DNA of 64,000 nt from Eledone cirrhosa (lineage: Eukaryota). Location of the stretch: the NCBI GenBank assembly GCA_964016885.1, contig OZ024740.1, positions 93,744,001 through 93,808,000 on the forward strand, written 5' to 3'. Position numbers and translations under genes: made by a program. Of the stretch, positions 1,291 to 64,000 are shown piece by piece (the stretch's first letter is position 1; each line of letters opens with the position of its first letter). The notes beneath the pieces were generated by a model. It did no database searches and was not told the origin of the DNA. It saw only the letters and a program-made list of their open reading frames with translations.

Positions 1291-4200
1291 CTAAGGCGGG
1301 TAAAATTCCCGAGATCCATGGACGAGTTCTCTCCAGAGGTCTCTGTCCCTCATTATCGCTGCCATGTCCTGCGTCTCCAACAGAAGTGTCTGTCCTTAGG
1401 GCATCAACATACGTTAACCTTGGTCATCATCTTCTAGTGTGTCCATGTAGGGGCTCCCAAAGGAGCACTGAGTGCAATGTCAAATCTGGATGTCGTTGAG
1501 CATATCCAGCTAACCTCAGTCTCCTCTGTGTCACTTTTGAGCAGACTTTTGGGATGCTCCCATACAGCTCTGAGTTGTTCATCCTCAGTGTATACTGATT
1601 TAATGTTCAGAGCCATCCTCAACATTGTCGTGTAGCACCCATCCACCATCTGAGTGAGTTTCTTGATCAGTGTCCAAGTCTCAGGCCCATACAGCAGCAC
1701 AGACTCCACTACATCAATGAAGAGGCGGACTTTCAAGACTCTACGAATGTCCGACATCCACACCGATCTCAAGCTGTGGCACGCAGCCCAGGCCTTGCTC
1801 TTCCTCTCAACCACATCATCTTCCGTATTCCCAATCTTTGCTCCCAATTACAGGAAGCCCTCAACCACTTCTAGCGGCTTCCCGCCTACATTAGTGATCC
1901 CCTCTGGCTTCTTAACATTCTCTACCAGATATTTTCTTTTAGTCTCATTCATTCTCAGCCCACACTCATCGACACAGTCTCAAACTCCCGCATCAAATCC
2001 TCTGCCTCCTTCACTGTATTTGTCACCAAAACTCTGTCGTCGGCAAATTCAGCATCCGATACCTTTTTTGCACTAACTCTCCTGCTCTGAGCCGATGCTA
2101 CAGTAAAGCCAGAGTCCTGGTGTTTCTCCAGTGCCAGGCGCATACAATAGTCCACTACGATGATAAAAAGGTAGGGAGCCAATGTATCTCCCTGGAGCAC
2201 TCCAGCCAGTATCTCAAAGAACTCTGTCATCCCATCAGGTGTAATGACTTGGGCTTTGGTGTTGGTGTTGATCAGTGATATCAGGTCCACTATCTTCTTG
2301 GGGATTCCATAAGCCTGTAAGATCTTCATCAGGCAGTAACGGTCCACAGAATCAAAAGCCTTCCTAAAGTCAATGGAAACCATGACCACAGGAAGGCACT
2401 TTGCTCTAGCTCCCTCTAGTATCCCCCTCAGCATCAGGATGTGACTGGTAGTTGATCTACCCTCTCTGAAGCCGTTCTGGTTGTCCCTATCTTCTTTTCC
2501 ATCTCAGGCTGGATCCTGTTAAGAATCATCCTGTTGAGGGTCTTTGCCACAAGTGACGTCAGTGAGATCCCCCTGTAGTTGTTGGTGTTAGAGAGATCTC
2601 CCTTCTTTGGCACTGGGACGATGTTACTGATCCTCCACTGATTCGGGGCAACTCCGTTCTACAGTGCCCCGTTACAGAACCCCAGGATGATATCATCAAA
2701 ATCACACCTCTTCATCACCTCTGATGCCACTCCATCTTCTCCATGAGCCTTGCCCTCCGTAATCCACTTCTTGGCTCTCTGAAGCTCCTCTCTGGTGAAG
2801 GGCTCTGTCTCAACATCCAGTTCCTCAAACAGCCGGCTGATCTCCACAGTGCTCTAAGCTGTGGAGGGTGGCTCTCCTAGTAGGGTCCTAAAATGGTCTA
2901 GCCATTTCCTCTTCCTATCCTCGGGCCCCGTTCCCTGGATCTGATTCGAACACCTTCTCTTCTTCCCTGTGGTCTGGTTGATGATCATCCAGCTCTCCCT
3001 ACATCCAGATCTGTCATCCGCTCTCTCCACACGTCTGATCTTCTCTATCAGTACCTCCTCTCTGACATCAGTGTAAGCGGTACAGAGTTCTTCCCTCATC
3101 ACCTCCACAGTCTCCATCCTCTCCTGCGTAGGATCAGCATAGAATTGGTCATTGGCAGGCTTCAGATGTTCTCTGGCTGCACACGCTTCTGGGTTTGCAG
3201 AGCTGACGTGCTTCCCTTTGTTCTTTTTCCTCGGCACCAGGGTTTCACTTGCTTCCGCCACTGCATTGGAGAAGTGCTCGTCACTCCTCGTCACACTTTC
3301 CTCAGTCCATCCAAGCTCTCTCTCCTCTGACTCTCCACACAGAGCACTAAACCTGTTTATCATCTTCCTTGAAAGCTCCCCAGTCATAGATGGTTCTCCG
3401 GGGCCGAGCCTTGCTCTTTCTTAAGCTCACCCGGACCTCATTCATAACAAGCCGGTGGTCACTACCCAGTGTACTGAAATAACTGTTAGGTTCTGTGTTC
3501 AGAACACTATTCCGCCACTTTTTCCTCACCAGGATGAAATCAATCTGGGACTGATATGTGCACATCTGAGATGTAGGTCCACATCTTCCACAGATTCTTC
3601 CTAAACCTTAGGTTGGTCGCCATCAAGTTCGCCTCCAGCAGGGTGTCTCTCAGTAGTCTTCCATTTCGGTTGGTGTTGTTATGGAAGTACCAGAAAGGAT
3701 CTTCACTGCCCTCCTTACTTAGATGTGCTTTGAAGTCCCCCAAAACAAGCAGGATATTGTGTGCCTGAGTGGTGTTAACAGCTCTACAGACCTCCTCATG
3801 GAACTCTTCCGCACTCACATCACTGTCCCCCACGGTTGGACTATAGGCTGATATGACTGTCAGTCTTGGGTTTCAATTGAAGGTCACCCTCAATACTCGC
3901 GGGGAGATAGGCATTATTTCCCTCACCAACAGATTGGTTCCTGCACTGAACACAAAACCCACTCTTCCTACTGCAGCATGTGTTGTGTTCTTCACTGCCG
4001 ATGTAGTGATGATCTGGCTCCTCTTCCCGATCATCACACTCCTCACGGGCTCATCGTGTAGGATCCTGTGTTCATGGATCGCAATATCTGTGTACCACTC
4101 TCCTCAAACAGATGTCCCAACTCTTATCTCTTCCCCAGCGTCCGAATAGTACTCACATTCAAAGTGCCCATTTTGATGGCTCTTCTGCAGGACAAAACTG

Positions 4201-57912: not shown

Positions 57913-58216
57913 TCCTTGTCTGGCTTTCTGGAGAATAGGGGGAAGGTGTTCAACCGAAAAACCAGTATGACTCTAAAAACCGGTTTGTCTGTGTGTTTAC
58001 ATACAAAATAGCTGGGCCGCTCACTGTAAAGCGACCAGTGAAAGACTTGGTACACCTACATATGTATACGTGTGTGTATTCATATACACACTAGTATTTC
58101 AGTATGCATATGTAGATGTACATTTTTAACTTAATTGTTTAAGCGTCAGTCATACAAAAGTGAGTTACAAACGAAACGAAATTTAATTTCGTTTCGTTAT
58201 TTGTTTCTATATATAT

Positions 58217-58286
<70 letters not shown>

Positions 58287-58344
58287 ATGAAATATATGAA
58301 ATATATGAAATATAAGAATGAAAGAGCTGCTCAAAACATTATTG

Positions 58345-58391
58345 TGCTTACAGCTGTTTCCTCCAAACCGAGGTTTGGATTCTTCGGAGCA
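58345..58391 (-). ncRNA. Hammerhead in 3' pLTR, CCGAAGA core
   Basis: TGCT CCGAAGA aTCCAAACC tc GGTTTGGAg GAAA CAGCTG TA AGCA. Confidence 0.8.
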
Positions 58392-59831
58392 ATTTATTAA
58401 TGCATGGACAGTTATATGACCTCCTTTTCAGCCGAGAGACATACCAATACATATTCAAACATTGATGCATATTCAAACATTGTGGGTCAACATTCATTAC
58501 AGAATTTAGAGTGGCAGTACACACTTCGAGATTACATTTATATTAATAGGTACAATCAAAAATCAAAGATATAGGTTAAAGTACAACATGAAGATAAGTG
58601 GTTATATAGTGCAAATGTTATATGTGTGGCACGCATGTGCGTCTTGTTTATATAGTGTGGCAGAGAGATATGTGTGGTAGAGGCACTAGGGTAGGTAAAT
58701 AAGAGTGTTAGGTTGGTAGATCTGGTGGCAAAGTCTTTATATGATTGATATAGTCTGTGTGTGGAGAAATATTATAAGCATTAAAGATAGTGCAAGCATT
58801 AAAAGTGTTATAATTATTGGAGATGCACAGCGCAGGGATGTCAAGTATTTCATGTACTTCGGCATTTTCATGGTCAGGGGAGTGTATATTTCGATTATAT
58901 GCCTTTCACATAATCCACGACAATCCAGTTAGAGATCGTAGTCTGGTGTTCTTTAGTTCGATACAGGAGGTTGTTACGTTTCGAGAAACGCCATTGAATA
59001 CCGGAAGTGTGTGTGTGGCTAAGGGGAGTTAATGCGTGCGGGGAGGTAACTCTGGTGTTTCTATATCTAGCCATTAAAATGTGTCCCAATATAGACCCTA
59101 AATTCTATGGTGATGTGCACCTTCCAAGAGAGACTTTTAAAGCATAAAGTGTATTAACTATAGAGTAGTTTAACTGAGTTATGCTGAAGGTGATCATATT
59201 ATTATGGTGGATTAACTCATCTTAAGGTGCTACAAATGAAAATTATAGATGATGAGCGAGGATTCTAAATTAATGATCTCTGTGGTTGTAGTCTGCTCAT
59301 ATGACCAGGCGCGGTGATTGTAGGATTGCTTCAGGACCCAATGATCTCTGGTAAGATCTGGGTCATCGCTTGCTACATTGGATGTCGAAAGATAATCGTC
59401 CCCAGGCAGGCCAAAGGTCAATCCGCAGTCCTCGCGACCCCTCTCTGACCGTCAGATCATCCATATACGTACAACCCGCCCGGCAGTTGCATTGCATTCA
59501 CTCACTGCGCTCAGCAGCCCGGTCCTACTGGTCAACAGCGCTACTCAATTAAATCATTTCACATCTGTCTAAGGAAGGTGTTTCCTCTGCCCAACACTAT
59601 CCAACCGATCAATTCATGCTCAAATTACCCTTAGAGCGGTGTAGTGCCGTTCAAGTGGGTGGATGTTGTCACACCTGCCGTAGAGGTATAAATGGGTATT
59701 TTCCCTGCGAAGGGTTCCAGAGGGATGTCGTTGTTTGTGTTATAATGGATCAGCTAGTGTTGGGTATGTAGTATAGGGTGTGTCCCTGGTGTTTGATGCT
59801 AGATGTGGTGTTAGGTTCCAGTCCGACATTG

Positions 59832-62291
59832 CTATATATAGGGCTTAAAGTTTTGGAAGGAATGTCTGAGGCGGTGCTGGCAAGTTGCAAACACCTCAGA
59901 TTTGTTGTTAAGTAGGTTACGGTTGGAGAAGATAATATTGTGTGTCTCTAGTATAAAGAGGTTACAGAATTTATTAGGTGGTTTGTACGAGGTCGCGCTG
60001 CCTATCACTTCCCATTTGAGTGTGTATGGTTTATTTTTAGATTTTAGATAGTGTATGTAGCTAGAAAGTGAGGTGGAGTTGGCTAGGCTGTGCTTTTTGA
60101 ACGAGTGGATGTGCGAGTTATATCTGATTTTGAAGCAGTTAGAAGTGGAGCCTACATAGGTTTCTGAAGAGTTATTAGTCGTGACTGTGCATGAGTATAT
60201 GACATCCTTGGTTAGGCATTTTTTATCTAAAGGGCAGGTTCTATTAGCTCTACAGTTACAATTATCCTGTGCGTTAGTCCGCTGGTTATAATGCAAAGCG
60301 GAAGTCTGTGTGATGGATATAGGATTCTGGGTCTTCGGGTTGACAACCCTGGTGTTATTACTTATACTAGTGTTATTTCTATTGTTACTGCCGTTGCTAT
60401 GGTTGCTTGCTACAGTGGTATTTAGAGGGTTTGCATCCCGTTGTGATTTTGTTTGTTGGAAGTAAGAACTAATTTTACTATTATTGCTGCTAGCTATGCG
60501 GTATGCTAAGTTAGGCGTCGTAGAGTATGAGATTTTAATGGTGTTTTTGTTTAAGAGGTTGTGGTACTTGTGTCCTAGAGGGAAGTTTTTATCTAGTAGT
60601 GAGAAGAAAGCCCTAGGTATGTTGGTGGAGACATTTAGGTTGAAATGAAGGTTGAAAAATGTATTATTTCTTCTTCTATTTTTACTTTTAGTGTTTGGTG
60701 TGTTGCTTCCTCCTAAGGCCCCACAGTAGTTTCCATGGTAATGGTTACTTCCGGTGGCACCCTCCGCTTTGGTGCACTTGTGGTTGCTATTCCTATTATT
60801 AGATTTCCTCATGGACATGTTGTGCGAGATGATGTTGTAGCTATGTGTTTTCTTATGTAGGAACTCAATTTCTATATTATGGCCGGAGCTAGCTAATGCT
60901 TGATTGTAATATTGTGAGTTTTTGCTAAATATGTTTGCGTCATAGGACAGACTAGAGATTCTATTGGACACCCCCTTAGAGATAGAGTTTAATATTGATC
61001 TAGGGTGATTAGACTTGGTATCTACGTAAATAAGTTTCTCATTAGGCTTATGGAAAGGTGTATATATTTTTGAGTCTAGGTATAGTGTGGGGTCTAGGAA
61101 GTTAACATTTTTAGTGTTTTTGTCCATGGTGATACTAAGGTTAAAGTTTTTGAATGTCTTATGCAGTTGTTTTCTAGTTCTTTCTATATTACATTTTTTA
61201 TATTCTATGAGTAGAAGTGCATCATCGCGGTACAAACCACCGTTGAGGTAAGGGAGGTCTTTATGGATTTCATTGAGGAGGTATAGGCCGACCAAATCAG
61301 TGACCTGCGCCGAGTCACTAGATCCCATGGTTATGTCGAAGTTGTTGTGCGTATCCTTGCGTGTCCATAGTTGGTCCTCGAAGGTGATTATGGTTTTACG
61401 GGCTGCAAGGATGACATCAACCTGGGCTCTAGTCAGGTCGCTATTGGTCATGGCCATGATAAGTGCCTTATTTAATAGGATAGGGGAAATAGAGGTGTAG
61501 TATGAATTGATATCAAATTGAATACATTTTTTGTTCTTATTATTCTTGATATCCTTGAACCATTCAATTACTTCACCCGTATTTCCCCATTGTTTAAGGT
61601 GTATCGTGTGTTTAATTTGTGGGATGATTTTATCCAAAATCTTCTTGCTGATAATACCAATGTCGGACTTGGAAGGGCAGATAAGTCTTATCGTGGGGTT
61701 GCTGATGAAGTTCTCCTTATGGTCCTTCAGAGAGAATCTAGGGGGATTCGGAGTGAAAGGTTGTGTATGCCTCTGTAGTCCTAGTTTAGACACTATATTA
61801 TAACCCTCTACATTAATATCTTCTAAGTTTTTCAAGGTGGTTTTTTTGTAGCTTTTATGTAGTTCATTATATATAAACTTTCTATAAGTAATATAATCTA
61901 GGCTGTATATGTTATTAGTTTTATCTGCGTGTACAATAATTTTATTACTAGTTTTGAATCCATTAATAGAAGTGTTAAGTTTATTTAAGAAGGTGTTGCT
62001 TCTAATATGGTGCTTATTGTATTTAATGTTCTTAACTAGTTTAACTAGGTCATTTTCAAAGGAGTTAAGTAGAGTGTTATGAGGGGGGCTTTTAAAGGTT
62101 TTAAAGCCGAAGGAGTCAAAATTGTTAGTATTATTCAAGTTGTTAGATTTGTTTCTATCATAATGGAATGTCCTCCATCTCACTCTATTGATAAATGAAT
62201 TTACACTGTTGATCAGCAATTTCTCAGATGTATTCCTGGATGGAATTGGTATGTTCTTGGTTGACATGGGGAGTTGGTCTTTGATTAGCAT
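59832..62291 (-). CDS. PLE reverse transcriptase with C-terminal GIY-YIG endonuclease (819 aa, open)
   Basis: QFDINSYY, MGSSDSAQV, GLYRDD, VNFLD, CNCRANRTCPL, VIYSC..TYVGST..FKIRYNSH, LLNNKSE..CQHR. Confidence 0.95.
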   Translation of the reverse strand: MLIKDQLPMSTKNIPIPSRNTSEKLLINSVNSFINRVRWRTFHYDRNKSNNLNNTNNFDSFGFKTFKSPPHNTLLNSFENDLVKLVKNIKYNKHHIRSNTFLNKLNTSINGFKTSNKIIVHADKTNNIYSLDYITYRKFIYNELHKSYKKTTLKNLEDINVEGYNIVSKLGLQRHTQPFTPNPPRFSLKDHKENFISNPTIRLICPSKSDIGIISKKILDKIIPQIKHTIHLKQWGNTGEVIEWFKDIKNNKNKKCIQFDINSYYTSISPILLNKALIMAMTNSDLTRAQVDVILAARKTIITFEDQLWTRKDTHNNFDITMGSSDSAQVTDLVGLYLLNEIHKDLPYLNGGLYRDDALLLIEYKKCNIERTRKQLHKTFKNFNLSITMDKNTKNVNFLDPTLYLDSKIYTPFHKPNEKLIYVDTKSNHPRSILNSISKGVSNRISSLSYDANIFSKNSQYYNQALASSGHNIEIEFLHKKTHSYNIISHNMSMRKSNNRNSNHKCTKAEGATGSNHYHGNYCGALGGSNTPNTKSKNRRRNNTFFNLHFNLNVSTNIPRAFFSLLDKNFPLGHKYHNLLNKNTIKISYSTTPNLAYRIASSNNSKISSYFQQTKSQRDANPLNTTVASNHSNGSNNRNNTSISNNTRVVNPKTQNPISITQTSALHYNQRTNAQDNCNCRANRTCPLDKKCLTKDVIYSCTVTTNNSSETYVGSTSNCFKIRYNSHIHSFKKHSLANSTSLSSYIHYLKSKNKPYTLKWEVIGSATSYKPPNKFCNLFILETHNIIFSNRNLLNNKSEVFATCQHRLRHSFQNFKPYI

Positions 62292-62540
62292 ATTGGCAAT
62301 ATTATATGTCAGCTCAACGATATGGAGCAGTTAATAGCATTAGTTATACTATTTATGGTTATGCAAATACAAAACCTTAAGCAGTTGTAAGTATTTTACA
62401 CACACCCTAAATAGTGGTAGGCAGTAATGTATTACTACCTTATTACCAGTAAGTTAAGTAGCTCAATGTAAAAACATCAGATGATTTACAGAGCAGTTAT
62501 ATGAAATATAAGAATCAAAGAGCTGCTCAAAACATTATTG

Positions 62541-62587
62541 TGCTTACAGCTGTTTCCTCCAAACCGAGGTTTGGATTCTTCGGAGCA
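62541..62587 (-). ncRNA. Hammerhead in 5' pLTR, CCGAAGA core
   Basis: Identical to 58345-58391. Confidence 0.8.
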
Positions 62588-63692
62588 ATTTATTAATGCA
62601 TGGACAGTTATATGACCTCCTTTTCAGCCGAGAGACATACCAATACATATTCAAACATTGATACATATTCAAACATTGTGGGTCAACATTCATTACAGAA
62701 TTTAGAGTGGCAGTACACACTTCGAGATTACATTTATATTAATAGGTACAATCAAAAATCAAAGATATAGGTTAAAGTACAACATGAAGATAAGTGGTTA
62801 TATAGTGCAAATGTTATATGTGTGGCACGCATGTGCGTCTTGTTTATATAGTGTGGCAGAGAGATATGTATGGTAGAGGCACTTAGGTAGGTAAATAAGA
62901 GTGTTAGGTTGGTAGATCTGGTGGCAAAATCTTTATATGATTGATATAGTCTGTGTGTGGAGAAATATTATAAGCATTAAAGATAGTGCAAGCATTAAAA
63001 GTGTTATAAGTATTGGAGATGCACAGCGCAGGGATGTCAAGTATTTCATGTACTTCGGCATTTCATGGTCAGGGGAGTGTATATTTCGATTATATGCCTT
63101 TCACATAATCCACGACAATCCAGTTAGAGATCGTAGTCTGGTGTTCTTTAGTTCGATACAGGAGGTTGTTACGTTTCGAGAAACGCCATTGAATACCGGA
63201 AGTGTGTGTGTGGCTAAGGGGAGTTAATGCGTGCGGGGAGGTAACTCTGGGGTTTCTATATCTAGCCATTAAAATGTGTCCCAATATAGAACCTAAATTC
63301 TATGGTGAAGTGCACCTTCCAAGAGAGACTTTTAAAGCATAAAGTGTATTAACTATAGAGTAGTTTAACTAAGTTATGCTGAAGGTGATCATATTATTAT
63401 GGTGGATTAACTCATCTTAAGGTGCTACAAATGGAAATTATAGATGATGAGCGAGGATTCTAAATTAAGCACAATAATATTTTGAGCAGCTCTTTGATTC
63501 TTATATTTCATATAACTGCTATGTAAATCATATGATGTTTTTACATTGAGCTACTTAACTTACTGTAATAAGGTAGTAATACATTACTGCCTACCACTAT
63601 TTAGGGTGTGTGTAAAATACTTACAACTGCTTAAGGTTTTGTATTTGCATAACCATAAATAGTATAACTAATACTATATATATGTATAAATT

Positions 63693-63775
<83 letters not shown>

Positions 63776-63792
63776 ATATATATATATGTATG

Positions 63793-63860
<68 letters not shown>

Positions 63861-64000
63861 GTATATATATATATATGTATATATATATGTATACATACAT
63901 ATATATATATGTATATATATGTATATACATATATATGTGTATATATATTAATATATATCAGGAGATACAAAGCAGGCTTTGTTTTTATAGCTTCTAATTG

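Follow-up and report, generated by a model that had tools for sequence, protein, structure and literature searches.

Endonuclease-bearing Penelope-like elements (PLEs) are the closest described relatives of the element treated here. As portrayed in the portions of the 2021 survey devoted to them (Craig et al. 2021, PMC8557442, citing Evgen'ev and Arkhipova 2005), they form complex tandem and inverted insertions, target (TA)n, may carry an optional end extension ('tail'), have one open reading frame (ORF) with a GIY-YIG C-terminus and harbor a hammerhead motif in their pseudo-long terminal repeats (pLTRs), whose function is described there as unclear. For the Poseidon element PAc of Anolis carolinensis, in vitro work documented that the protein cuts and extends both strands of the target, that reverse transcription starts internally at two sites and that the hammerhead cleaves only with the protein present (Frangieh et al. 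2024, PMC11167929). Here we analyzed a stretch of 64,000 nucleotides (nt) from the 3.0-Gb genome of Eledone cirrhosa (assembly GCA_964016885.1, contig OZ024740.1, positions 93,744,001-93,808,000 of the forward strand), called the window in the following, in which one Penelope-like retrotransposon has inserted into a TA repeat as a long arm and a 212-nt short arm joined head to head. Its pLTRs carry a hammerhead-like motif, and the junctions of its family in the genome show a small but sharp excess at exactly the bond that this motif is predicted to cut. Judged from the sequence, the chances are about even that the RNA copied into the short arm had ended at the predicted cut, which would mean that the motif had cut it in the cell and that such cutting happens in vivo, if rarely.

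The window documents a young PLE on the minus strand that spans more than one unit of 4196 nt and is inserted in (TA)n, which was read directly on both flanks. Unit positions are counted from the predicted cut, so that +1 corresponds to 62544 and -1 to 62545. The features of the insertion are as follows.

58198-58285, no strand: (TA)n target microsatellite flanking the 3' end of the element, with the end tgtgtg (read directly; D1 repeat family)
58286-58301, minus strand: two additional copies of the last 7-9 element bases (TTTCATATA) past the +47 end (read directly)
58302-59273, minus strand: 3' pLTR copy of the long arm, ending at unit +47 (58302) (direct repeats D2 and D3, 99%)
58341-58395, minus strand: hammerhead-like motif in the 3' pLTR, predicted cut 58349/58348 (identical to the 5' copy at an offset of 4196 nt)
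59832-62291, minus strand: 819-aa ORF (ORF list; Pfam, Atlas)
62334-63468, minus strand: upstream pLTR part of the long arm, 5' end at 63465-63468, corresponding to unit position ~3272 (blastn against the unit; direct repeats)
62537-62591, minus strand: hammerhead-like motif in the 5' pLTR, predicted cut 62545/62544 (read directly)
63466-63677, plus strand: inverted short arm, unit (-2)+1 to +211, joined head to head to the long arm (inverted repeats I1 and I2; blastn 1 to 211, 97.6%)
63678-63960, no strand: (TA)n target microsatellite flanking the short arm (read directly; D1 family)

Read 5' to 3' on the minus strand, the long arm extends from 63465(-63468) down to 58302. Its pLTRs are two direct repeats of about 970 nt with 99% identity and an offset of 4196 nt (58302-59273 and 62498-63468); the blocks 58302-58601/62498-62797 and 58866-59165/63061-63360 are each 99% identical at a spacing of 4195-4196 nt. 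They are arranged in partial tandem on either side of the single 819-aa ORF, and an inverted, 5'-truncated copy (63466-63677) adjoins the upstream pLTR. The combination of pLTRs, inverted copy and (TA)n target represents the anatomy published for endonuclease-bearing PLEs, as far as the relevant portions of PMC8557442 describe it, and the agreement includes the partial tandem of the pLTRs, the position of the inverted copy next to the upstream one, an optional tail, a single ORF with a putatively GIY-YIG-like C-terminus and a hammerhead motif in the pLTR. Measured against the same portions of the survey, two traits differ: the tail of 30-40 nt is replaced by one of 164 nt in the window family (+47 versus +211), and the ORF of the window has no Pfam match to a reverse transcriptase (RT) and a weak one to GIY-YIG. 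A variant 28-mer of both window pLTRs has two occurrences in the genome, both inside the window, and the short arm also carries GAGCAGCTC of this private variant. Since both arms share it, all parts stem from one insertion event.

The Pfam scan of the ORF returned no RT match, and its GIY-YIG match is weak (PF01541, E=0.011, 16.5 bits at a cut-off of 22.6, aa 703-756). By eye, the motifs VIY..YVG..R..H as well as FDINSYYTSI and YRDD are recognizable. The nearest Atlas clusters (scores 0.96-0.98) carry HTH_animal, DUF8422, GIY-YIG and RVT_1, the latter in some of the neighbors.

The short arm (plus strand 63466-63677, 212 nt) is the reverse complement of 62334-62546 and falls into two inverted-repeat blocks, 62334-62446/63565-63677 (113 nt, 99%) and 62447-62546/63466-63565 (100 nt, 97%). 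It ends at unit +211 against (TA)n, and the long arm ends at +47, followed by the two additional TTTCATATA units and (TA)n. The first bases of the short arm from 63466 are TAAGCAC, and the predicted scissile bond is GUA/AGCAC (here and below, a slash within a sequence marks the cut or junction). The boundary of the 3' pLTR reads ..ctaaattaa/tgatc (59265-59273) and that of the 5' copy ..ctaaattaa/gcaca (63460-63468); because TAA (63466-63468) belongs to both arms, the start of the short arm is ambiguous over -2 to +1. An earlier sequence-only reading had let the inverted copy start at 63466, with TAA as shared microhomology and about 210 nt up to (TA)n, which is borne out by the 212 nt to 63677. 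Its further statement that this copy begins at the predicted cut is compatible with a start at +1, which the ambiguity of 3 nt leaves unproven. The chance that one junction falls within a four-position range of the 4196-nt unit is ~0.1%, but the window case alone is not significant because the family has at least 2009 first-look candidates.

The hammerhead-like motif is present once per pLTR. On the minus strand it reads, from 62591 to 62537, AAAUUGCU CCGAAGA A UCCAAACC UC GGUUUGGA G GAAAC AGCU GUA/AGCACAAU, and the rule that hammerheads cut 3' of N17 after the 15.1-16.1 pair places the cut at 62545/62544. Helices I, II and III lie in the correct places. Helix II has 8 bp, a base being bulged out at the 5' end, and is the sole helix in the centroid fold, also appearing in the minimum-free-energy fold; helix I (UUGCU/AGCA(C)A, 4-5 bp, the slash separating the two strands) and helix III (a C-G pair plus the palindromic AGCU loop) were assigned by eye. 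The GAAA box is present, and after it come the A-U pair 15.1-16.1 and a cleavage triplet of NUH type (GAAAC AGCU GUA/A). In metazoan PLE hammerheads, helix II is long, helix I is short and helix III is small and palindromic, according to the passages of PMC4209133 that concern them. Our motif resembles these minimal hammerheads in the 8-bp helix II with its 5' bulge, the 4-5-bp helix I, the GAAA box, the GUA triplet and the 1-2-bp helix III under the palindromic 4-nt loop AGCU, which suggests action as a dimer; it differs from them in the first box CCGAAGA with C at position 4, in A and G at 10.1-11.1 and in lacking an Rfam match. The motif is identical across the 30 loci sampled with the pLTR probe (see below), but this identity says little about constraint and covariation is unusable, because the family is ~99% identical and thus too young.

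Several observations concern the surroundings and the spread of the motif. An AATAAA word is located at 62589-62594 on the minus strand (-50 to -45), directly upstream of helix I. A more diverged CAGTTG subfamily with ..CAGTTGTAAGCA(C/T)AAACATG.. (L144-L156, L159 in our numbering of loci and arms) has a non-palindromic loop III and keeps the CCGAAGA and GAAAC boxes. Contigs of the public run X2, compared with window positions 62250-62750, contain pieces of the family with a summed word depth of more than 100,000; some of them part from the window just after motif position +4, which suggests that the motif is common to related families.

First-look candidates across the genome numbered 2009 with a 401-nt pLTR probe and 757 with an ORF-start probe, and two samples were drawn, namely 30 loci via the pLTR probe and 29 non-window loci via the ORF-start probe, which is blind to the site. 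An inverted arm was found in ~20 of the 30 pLTR-probe loci, with starts at 1 (window only), 96, 129, 998, 1239, 1418, 1935, 2053, 2920, 3091, 3105, 3307, 3572, 3610, 3631, 3763, 4023, 4060, 4092 and 4116. The arms have two fixed 3' ends, +45/47 or +211. Additional TTTCATA(TA) copies, one to four in number, precede (TA)n in 41 of 123 arms ending at ~+47 (among them the window, L010, L030, L043, L046, L048, L049, L051 and L055), and these extra units look as if a telomerase-related RT had copied a short piece of template several times over. Mini-insertions without the ORF are common in (TA)n and consist of two head-to-head short arms, one with the +47 end and one with the +211 end (L043, L053, L055, L060, L072, L123 and others).

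Junctions around the predicted cut were tabulated with patterns built from an anchor of 16-18 nt, a stretch of N and a single position forced to be non-canonical. This design finds about three quarters of the in-range arm starts and also catches point mutants at the single tested position; the patterns were built on the common family variant, the window variant being private to the window. For the three-position ranges from -8 to +7, the flanks were read to tell true junctions, which amounted to 3 events among 12 matches for starts at -8 to -6, 13 among 28 at -5 to -3, 18 among 28 at -2 to +1 (14 of them exactly at +1), 5 among 17 at +2 to +4 and 14 among 24 at +5 to +7. The pattern spanning -11 to +8 gave 123 matches, 100 of which were listed, and the 84 junction arms scored by script in these underlie the following counts. 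Among the matches listed, arm starts fell on -10 (1), -8 (2), -6 (3), -4 (5), -3 (2), -2 (3), -1 (1), +1 (14), +2 (4), +3 (1), +4 (3), +5 (0), +6 (7), +7 (29) and +8 (9). After subtraction of one 7-nt internal deletion from its 14 rows, the +1 peak comprises at least 13 arms at 11 loci, compared with 0-5 arms at ordinary positions. Thus 13 of the 37 arms between -11 and +5 among the matches listed start at +1, with a binomial p of 2e-7 by rows and 6e-6 by loci against 16 positions. Control ranges, counted by eye, yielded ~2.2 arms per position with a maximum of 4 at +11 to +25 (96 rows), ~1.3 with a maximum of ~5 at +103 to +121 (53 rows) and ~1.4 with a maximum of ~5 at -30 to -12 (96 rows, ~69 of them subfamily or indel variants). 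Position +1 is the largest hotspot without a palindrome explanation among the ~73 positions surveyed with one design. The sequence-only reading had expected truncation and inversion points to peak at this site and not to be spread uniformly; the junctions are indeed not uniform and the +1 peak is sharp, but further hotspots accompany it at -4/-3 and at +7 to +10.

The pattern for the range -2 to +1, which required a non-G at -3, had its 28 matches divided as follows: 8 point, indel or deletion variants and 20 true junctions at 18 loci, 14 of which start exactly at AGCAC and four of which are ambiguous over -2 to +1. With the addition of L230, exact +1 starts are present at 15 loci in all, and the ambiguous ones are these four and the window. 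Opposite the +1 arms stand either antisense arms that begin at +1, +2, +9 (3 loci), +12, -3, +141, +255 or 3140, or plain flank as partner; the +1 events are independent, because the partners differ from locus to locus. With one exception, the +1 arms run to +47 or +211, which would be expected if the template was a short 3' fragment of cleaved RNA, and many of them sit in ORF-less two-arm mini-insertions. Two loci (L043/44, L053/54) have a +1 start in either arm and AT or ATATAT as filler in between, which is what a short RNA beginning at +1 and copied from both target strands would give. Sense copies breaking between -1 and +17 provided 10 matches, namely six point or indel variants, one unrelated 16-mer and three real breaks, two of which are located at -1 (p=0.009). 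One of these is clean (L142), ending at -1, adding TC and restarting at unit position 3999, and the other (L141) is ambiguous by a TA. The apparent break at -1 in L140 was discarded as the occurrence of the unrelated 16-mer.

These junctions may be accounted for by the following sequence of events. By analogy with the Anolis PLE, the element protein would nick both strands of the TA repeat and prime one complementary DNA (cDNA) on each. The first cDNA would start at +47 and copy more than one unit of uncut RNA, the second would start at +211 and run off the RNA 5' end left at +1 by the hammerhead cut, and the run-off end would then be joined to the other cDNA via 1-3 nt of microhomology. Cleavage would be rare, with ~1% or fewer of the cDNAs that reach the site ending there. 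Less than ~1% of the arms end at +1, and the motif would therefore be a weak ribozyme or one rarely in its active (dimeric, protein-assisted) state; such rarity fits the weak non-canonical core and uncut RNA as the template of most copies. We propose, as a tentative reading that falls somewhat short of an even chance, that genomic junctions in this family, with copies in the thousands, record the in-cell self-cleavage of a metazoan PLE minimal hammerhead despite its C4, and that ORF-less palindromic mini-insertions may have arisen when the short +1 fragment was copied from each of the two target strands.

A considerable body of observations weighs against cleavage. The first box of the motif is CCGAAGA in place of CUGANGA, with C for U at position 4 in 30 of 30 loci, and in minimal hammerheads a U-to-C change at position 4 strongly lowers activity in mutational work. 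An Rfam scan of the window at the gathering threshold found no hammerhead match, and at E up to 10 the region 62480-62660 gave seven hits, none of them to a hammerhead family. In the window itself, the predicted +1 (63468) lies within the ambiguous range without being singled out. At least 10 inverted arms in the 30 pLTR-probe loci cross the site uncut; in the ORF-probe loci the long arm crosses the upstream site in 20 of 29 and starts at +1 in none of 29, the other starts being located downstream in 8 of 29 (+19 to +301) and at -3 in one. Cleavage is thus no regular step in copying, because most long arms read through the upstream site. Ends at the site make up less than ~1% of the copies and arms, and several +1 junctions share 1-4 nt (A, AG, AGC, AGCA) with their partner, which blurs the exact end. 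For PAc, hammerhead mutants left insertion in vitro unchanged, and the cut coincided with neither starts nor ends of RNA-seq reads (PMC11167929). As a separate observation, the 5' ends of long arms bunch at +164 to +301 (7 of 29: L173, L177, L180, L181, L184, L190, L197), near +211 and the ORF start (+254).

The neighboring hotspots count on the same side. A second sharp one at -4/-3 comprises 15 loci with arms starting TGTAAGCAC or GTAAGCAC and is nearly as common as +1; T occupies -4 in 13 of the 15 loci, one locus has both arms there and one of the arms is a long arm. Loci with such starts include L079, L080, L087, L090/91, L096, L098, L100-L102, L188 and L213. Two sense copies (L169, L171) end in ..CAGC(T), after which (TA)n sets in. 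The -4/-3 hotspot fits no hammerhead register, and sharp hotspots can therefore arise here for other reasons. The largest hotspots of all are +7 (at least 29 arms) and its partner +10, within +7 to +10, where the quasi-palindrome CAATAATG/CATTATTG is situated and many junctions are perfect or near-perfect palindromes. The near-palindromic junction CAAAACA/TAATGTTTTG was seen at no fewer than 12 separate loci (L204, L206, L208, L210, L214, L217, L222-L224, L231, L232, L235), and perfect palindromes centered on +7 to +9 in L125, L211, L227, L229 and L234. The +7/+10 hotspots probably reflect the annealing of two cDNA 3' ends and are then uninformative on cleavage. A 'CATG' class at +10 (25 rows) was set aside, since all 12 of the 12 loci fetched represent the subfamily variant ..AGCA(C/T)AAACATG.. 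and not junctions. Set against these observations, the claim of the sequence-only reading that a cDNA ran off a self-cleaved RNA end retains the genome-wide +1 excess in its favor and has most templates uncut, the other hotspots and the C4 core against it; the signal is small but real, and to read it as 'fossil evidence' of cleavage in vivo is reasonable, if unproven.

The alternative that fares best dispenses with cleavage altogether and assumes that the folded motif region of uncut RNA, perhaps as a dimer or with protein bound to it, makes the RT stall or change template, with +7/+8, +1 and -4 as successive barriers (helix I entry, three-way junction and helix III). It would accommodate three hotspots within 12 nt inside the motif, whereas cleavage accounts for one alone, and the protein of the Anolis PLE binds near the corresponding region (PMC11167929). 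However, the most stable structure of the motif, the 8-bp helix II, collects ~5 arms at most on any one position and 3 at the base on its 3' side, compared to 13 at +1; if helix III acted as a duplex barrier, stops would be predicted at -1 and not at +1 and -4, and the sense breaks at -1 are left unexplained. We consider stalling unlikely, if worth keeping in view.

A further alternative, which we rate as improbable, holds that RNA ends of another kind occur at +1 and at -3/-4, either as starts of a pLTR promoter at the purines G(-3) and A(+1) or through the 5' splice site GUAAGC, the coincidence with the hammerhead being accidental. Two neighboring starts are more in line with dispersed initiation than with a ribozyme, promoters and in some cases introns are located in PLE pLTRs (in the relevant portions of PMC6765202 and PMC8557442), and a T stands in front of 13 of the 15 arms at -3 and 11 of the 15 at +1, which could be an untemplated A added at run-off. 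Long arms should, however, pile up at a main start site, but a single one among the 29 starts there, at -3, and 20 reach beyond it in the upstream direction; no TATA-like box is located ~30 nt upstream, the AT-rich TTAATAAAT lying at -52 to -44, and the breaks at -1 again find no explanation. GTAAGC at -3, read directly, resembles a 5' splice site and matches its intron side. None of 12 matches with a non-G after ..CAGCT and none of 7 with a non-T after ..CAGCTG proved to be a join to a downstream exon, and the idea of a splice site between -4 and -3 was rejected, as no copy without the putative intron was found in these 12 + 7 matches.

Lastly, the +1 excess could be a product of sequence context, with chance and microhomology or AT-rich joining and no RNA end involved, an explanation of the biggest hotspots (+7 to +10 on the quasi-palindrome), of the A, AG, AGC and AGCA microhomologies at several +1 junctions and of the occasional indistinguishability of +1 and +2 next to TA-rich partners, but a slim chance as regards +1, which was predicted before counting, is the top non-palindrome hotspot of ~73 positions, starts with the non-palindromic AGCAC and has 13 arms where +2 has 4 and -1 has 1, the opposite of what would result if a G start spilled over into AT-rich flanking sequence.

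Cleavage followed by run-off also has to be seen next to other retroelements. PAc resembles the window family in its AT-rich target and in the location of the hammerhead in the pLTR/ORF junction region; the cutting and extension of both strands by its protein explains head-to-head arms, and its two internal starts of reverse transcription explain the two fixed 3' ends. The two systems differ in that no RNA-seq ends were detected at the cut of PAc, whereas the window family exhibits a small excess of genomic junctions at the predicted bond. In the twin priming of L1, which Ostertag and Kazazian are said to have put forward in 2001, two cDNAs are reportedly primed from both target strands and joined by microhomology, leaving an inverted 5' segment. 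Priming on two strands and the microhomology join are shared with the insertions described here. Unlike in twin priming, both cDNAs start at fixed internal sites near the 3' region of the RNA, the segment that recurs in the inverted arm is again the 3' one and not one located further 5', and ORF-less two-arm mini-insertions are common. The proposed role of the motif is reminiscent of R2, in that a self-cleaving ribozyme would set the RNA 5' end for cDNA run-off and thereby mark the 5' junctions; the R2 ribozyme processes essentially all transcripts, whereas here the site accounts for less than ~1% of the junctions and the majority of templates were uncut.

The element, the inverted arm, the TA target, the two 3' ends and the pLTR hammerhead are already known in PLEs from PMC11167929 and from the pertinent portions of PMC8557442 and PMC4209133. 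What may be new are the junction statistics as a record of cleavage in vivo and the C4 core. No comparable tabulation of junctions is contained in PMC11167929 or in the pertinent portions of PMC4209133, PMC8557442 and PMC6765202, a literature search aimed at that question not being part of this comparison. Should the +1 excess have a source other than cleavage, the window would represent an ordinary PLE insertion. If it does trace cleavage, the cut RNA would be a minor side-template and not the main one, and the junctions would be the first in vivo evidence of PLE hammerhead activity, together with a by-product class of insertions. Genome sequence alone would then tell which PLE ribozymes act in cells, and roughly how often.

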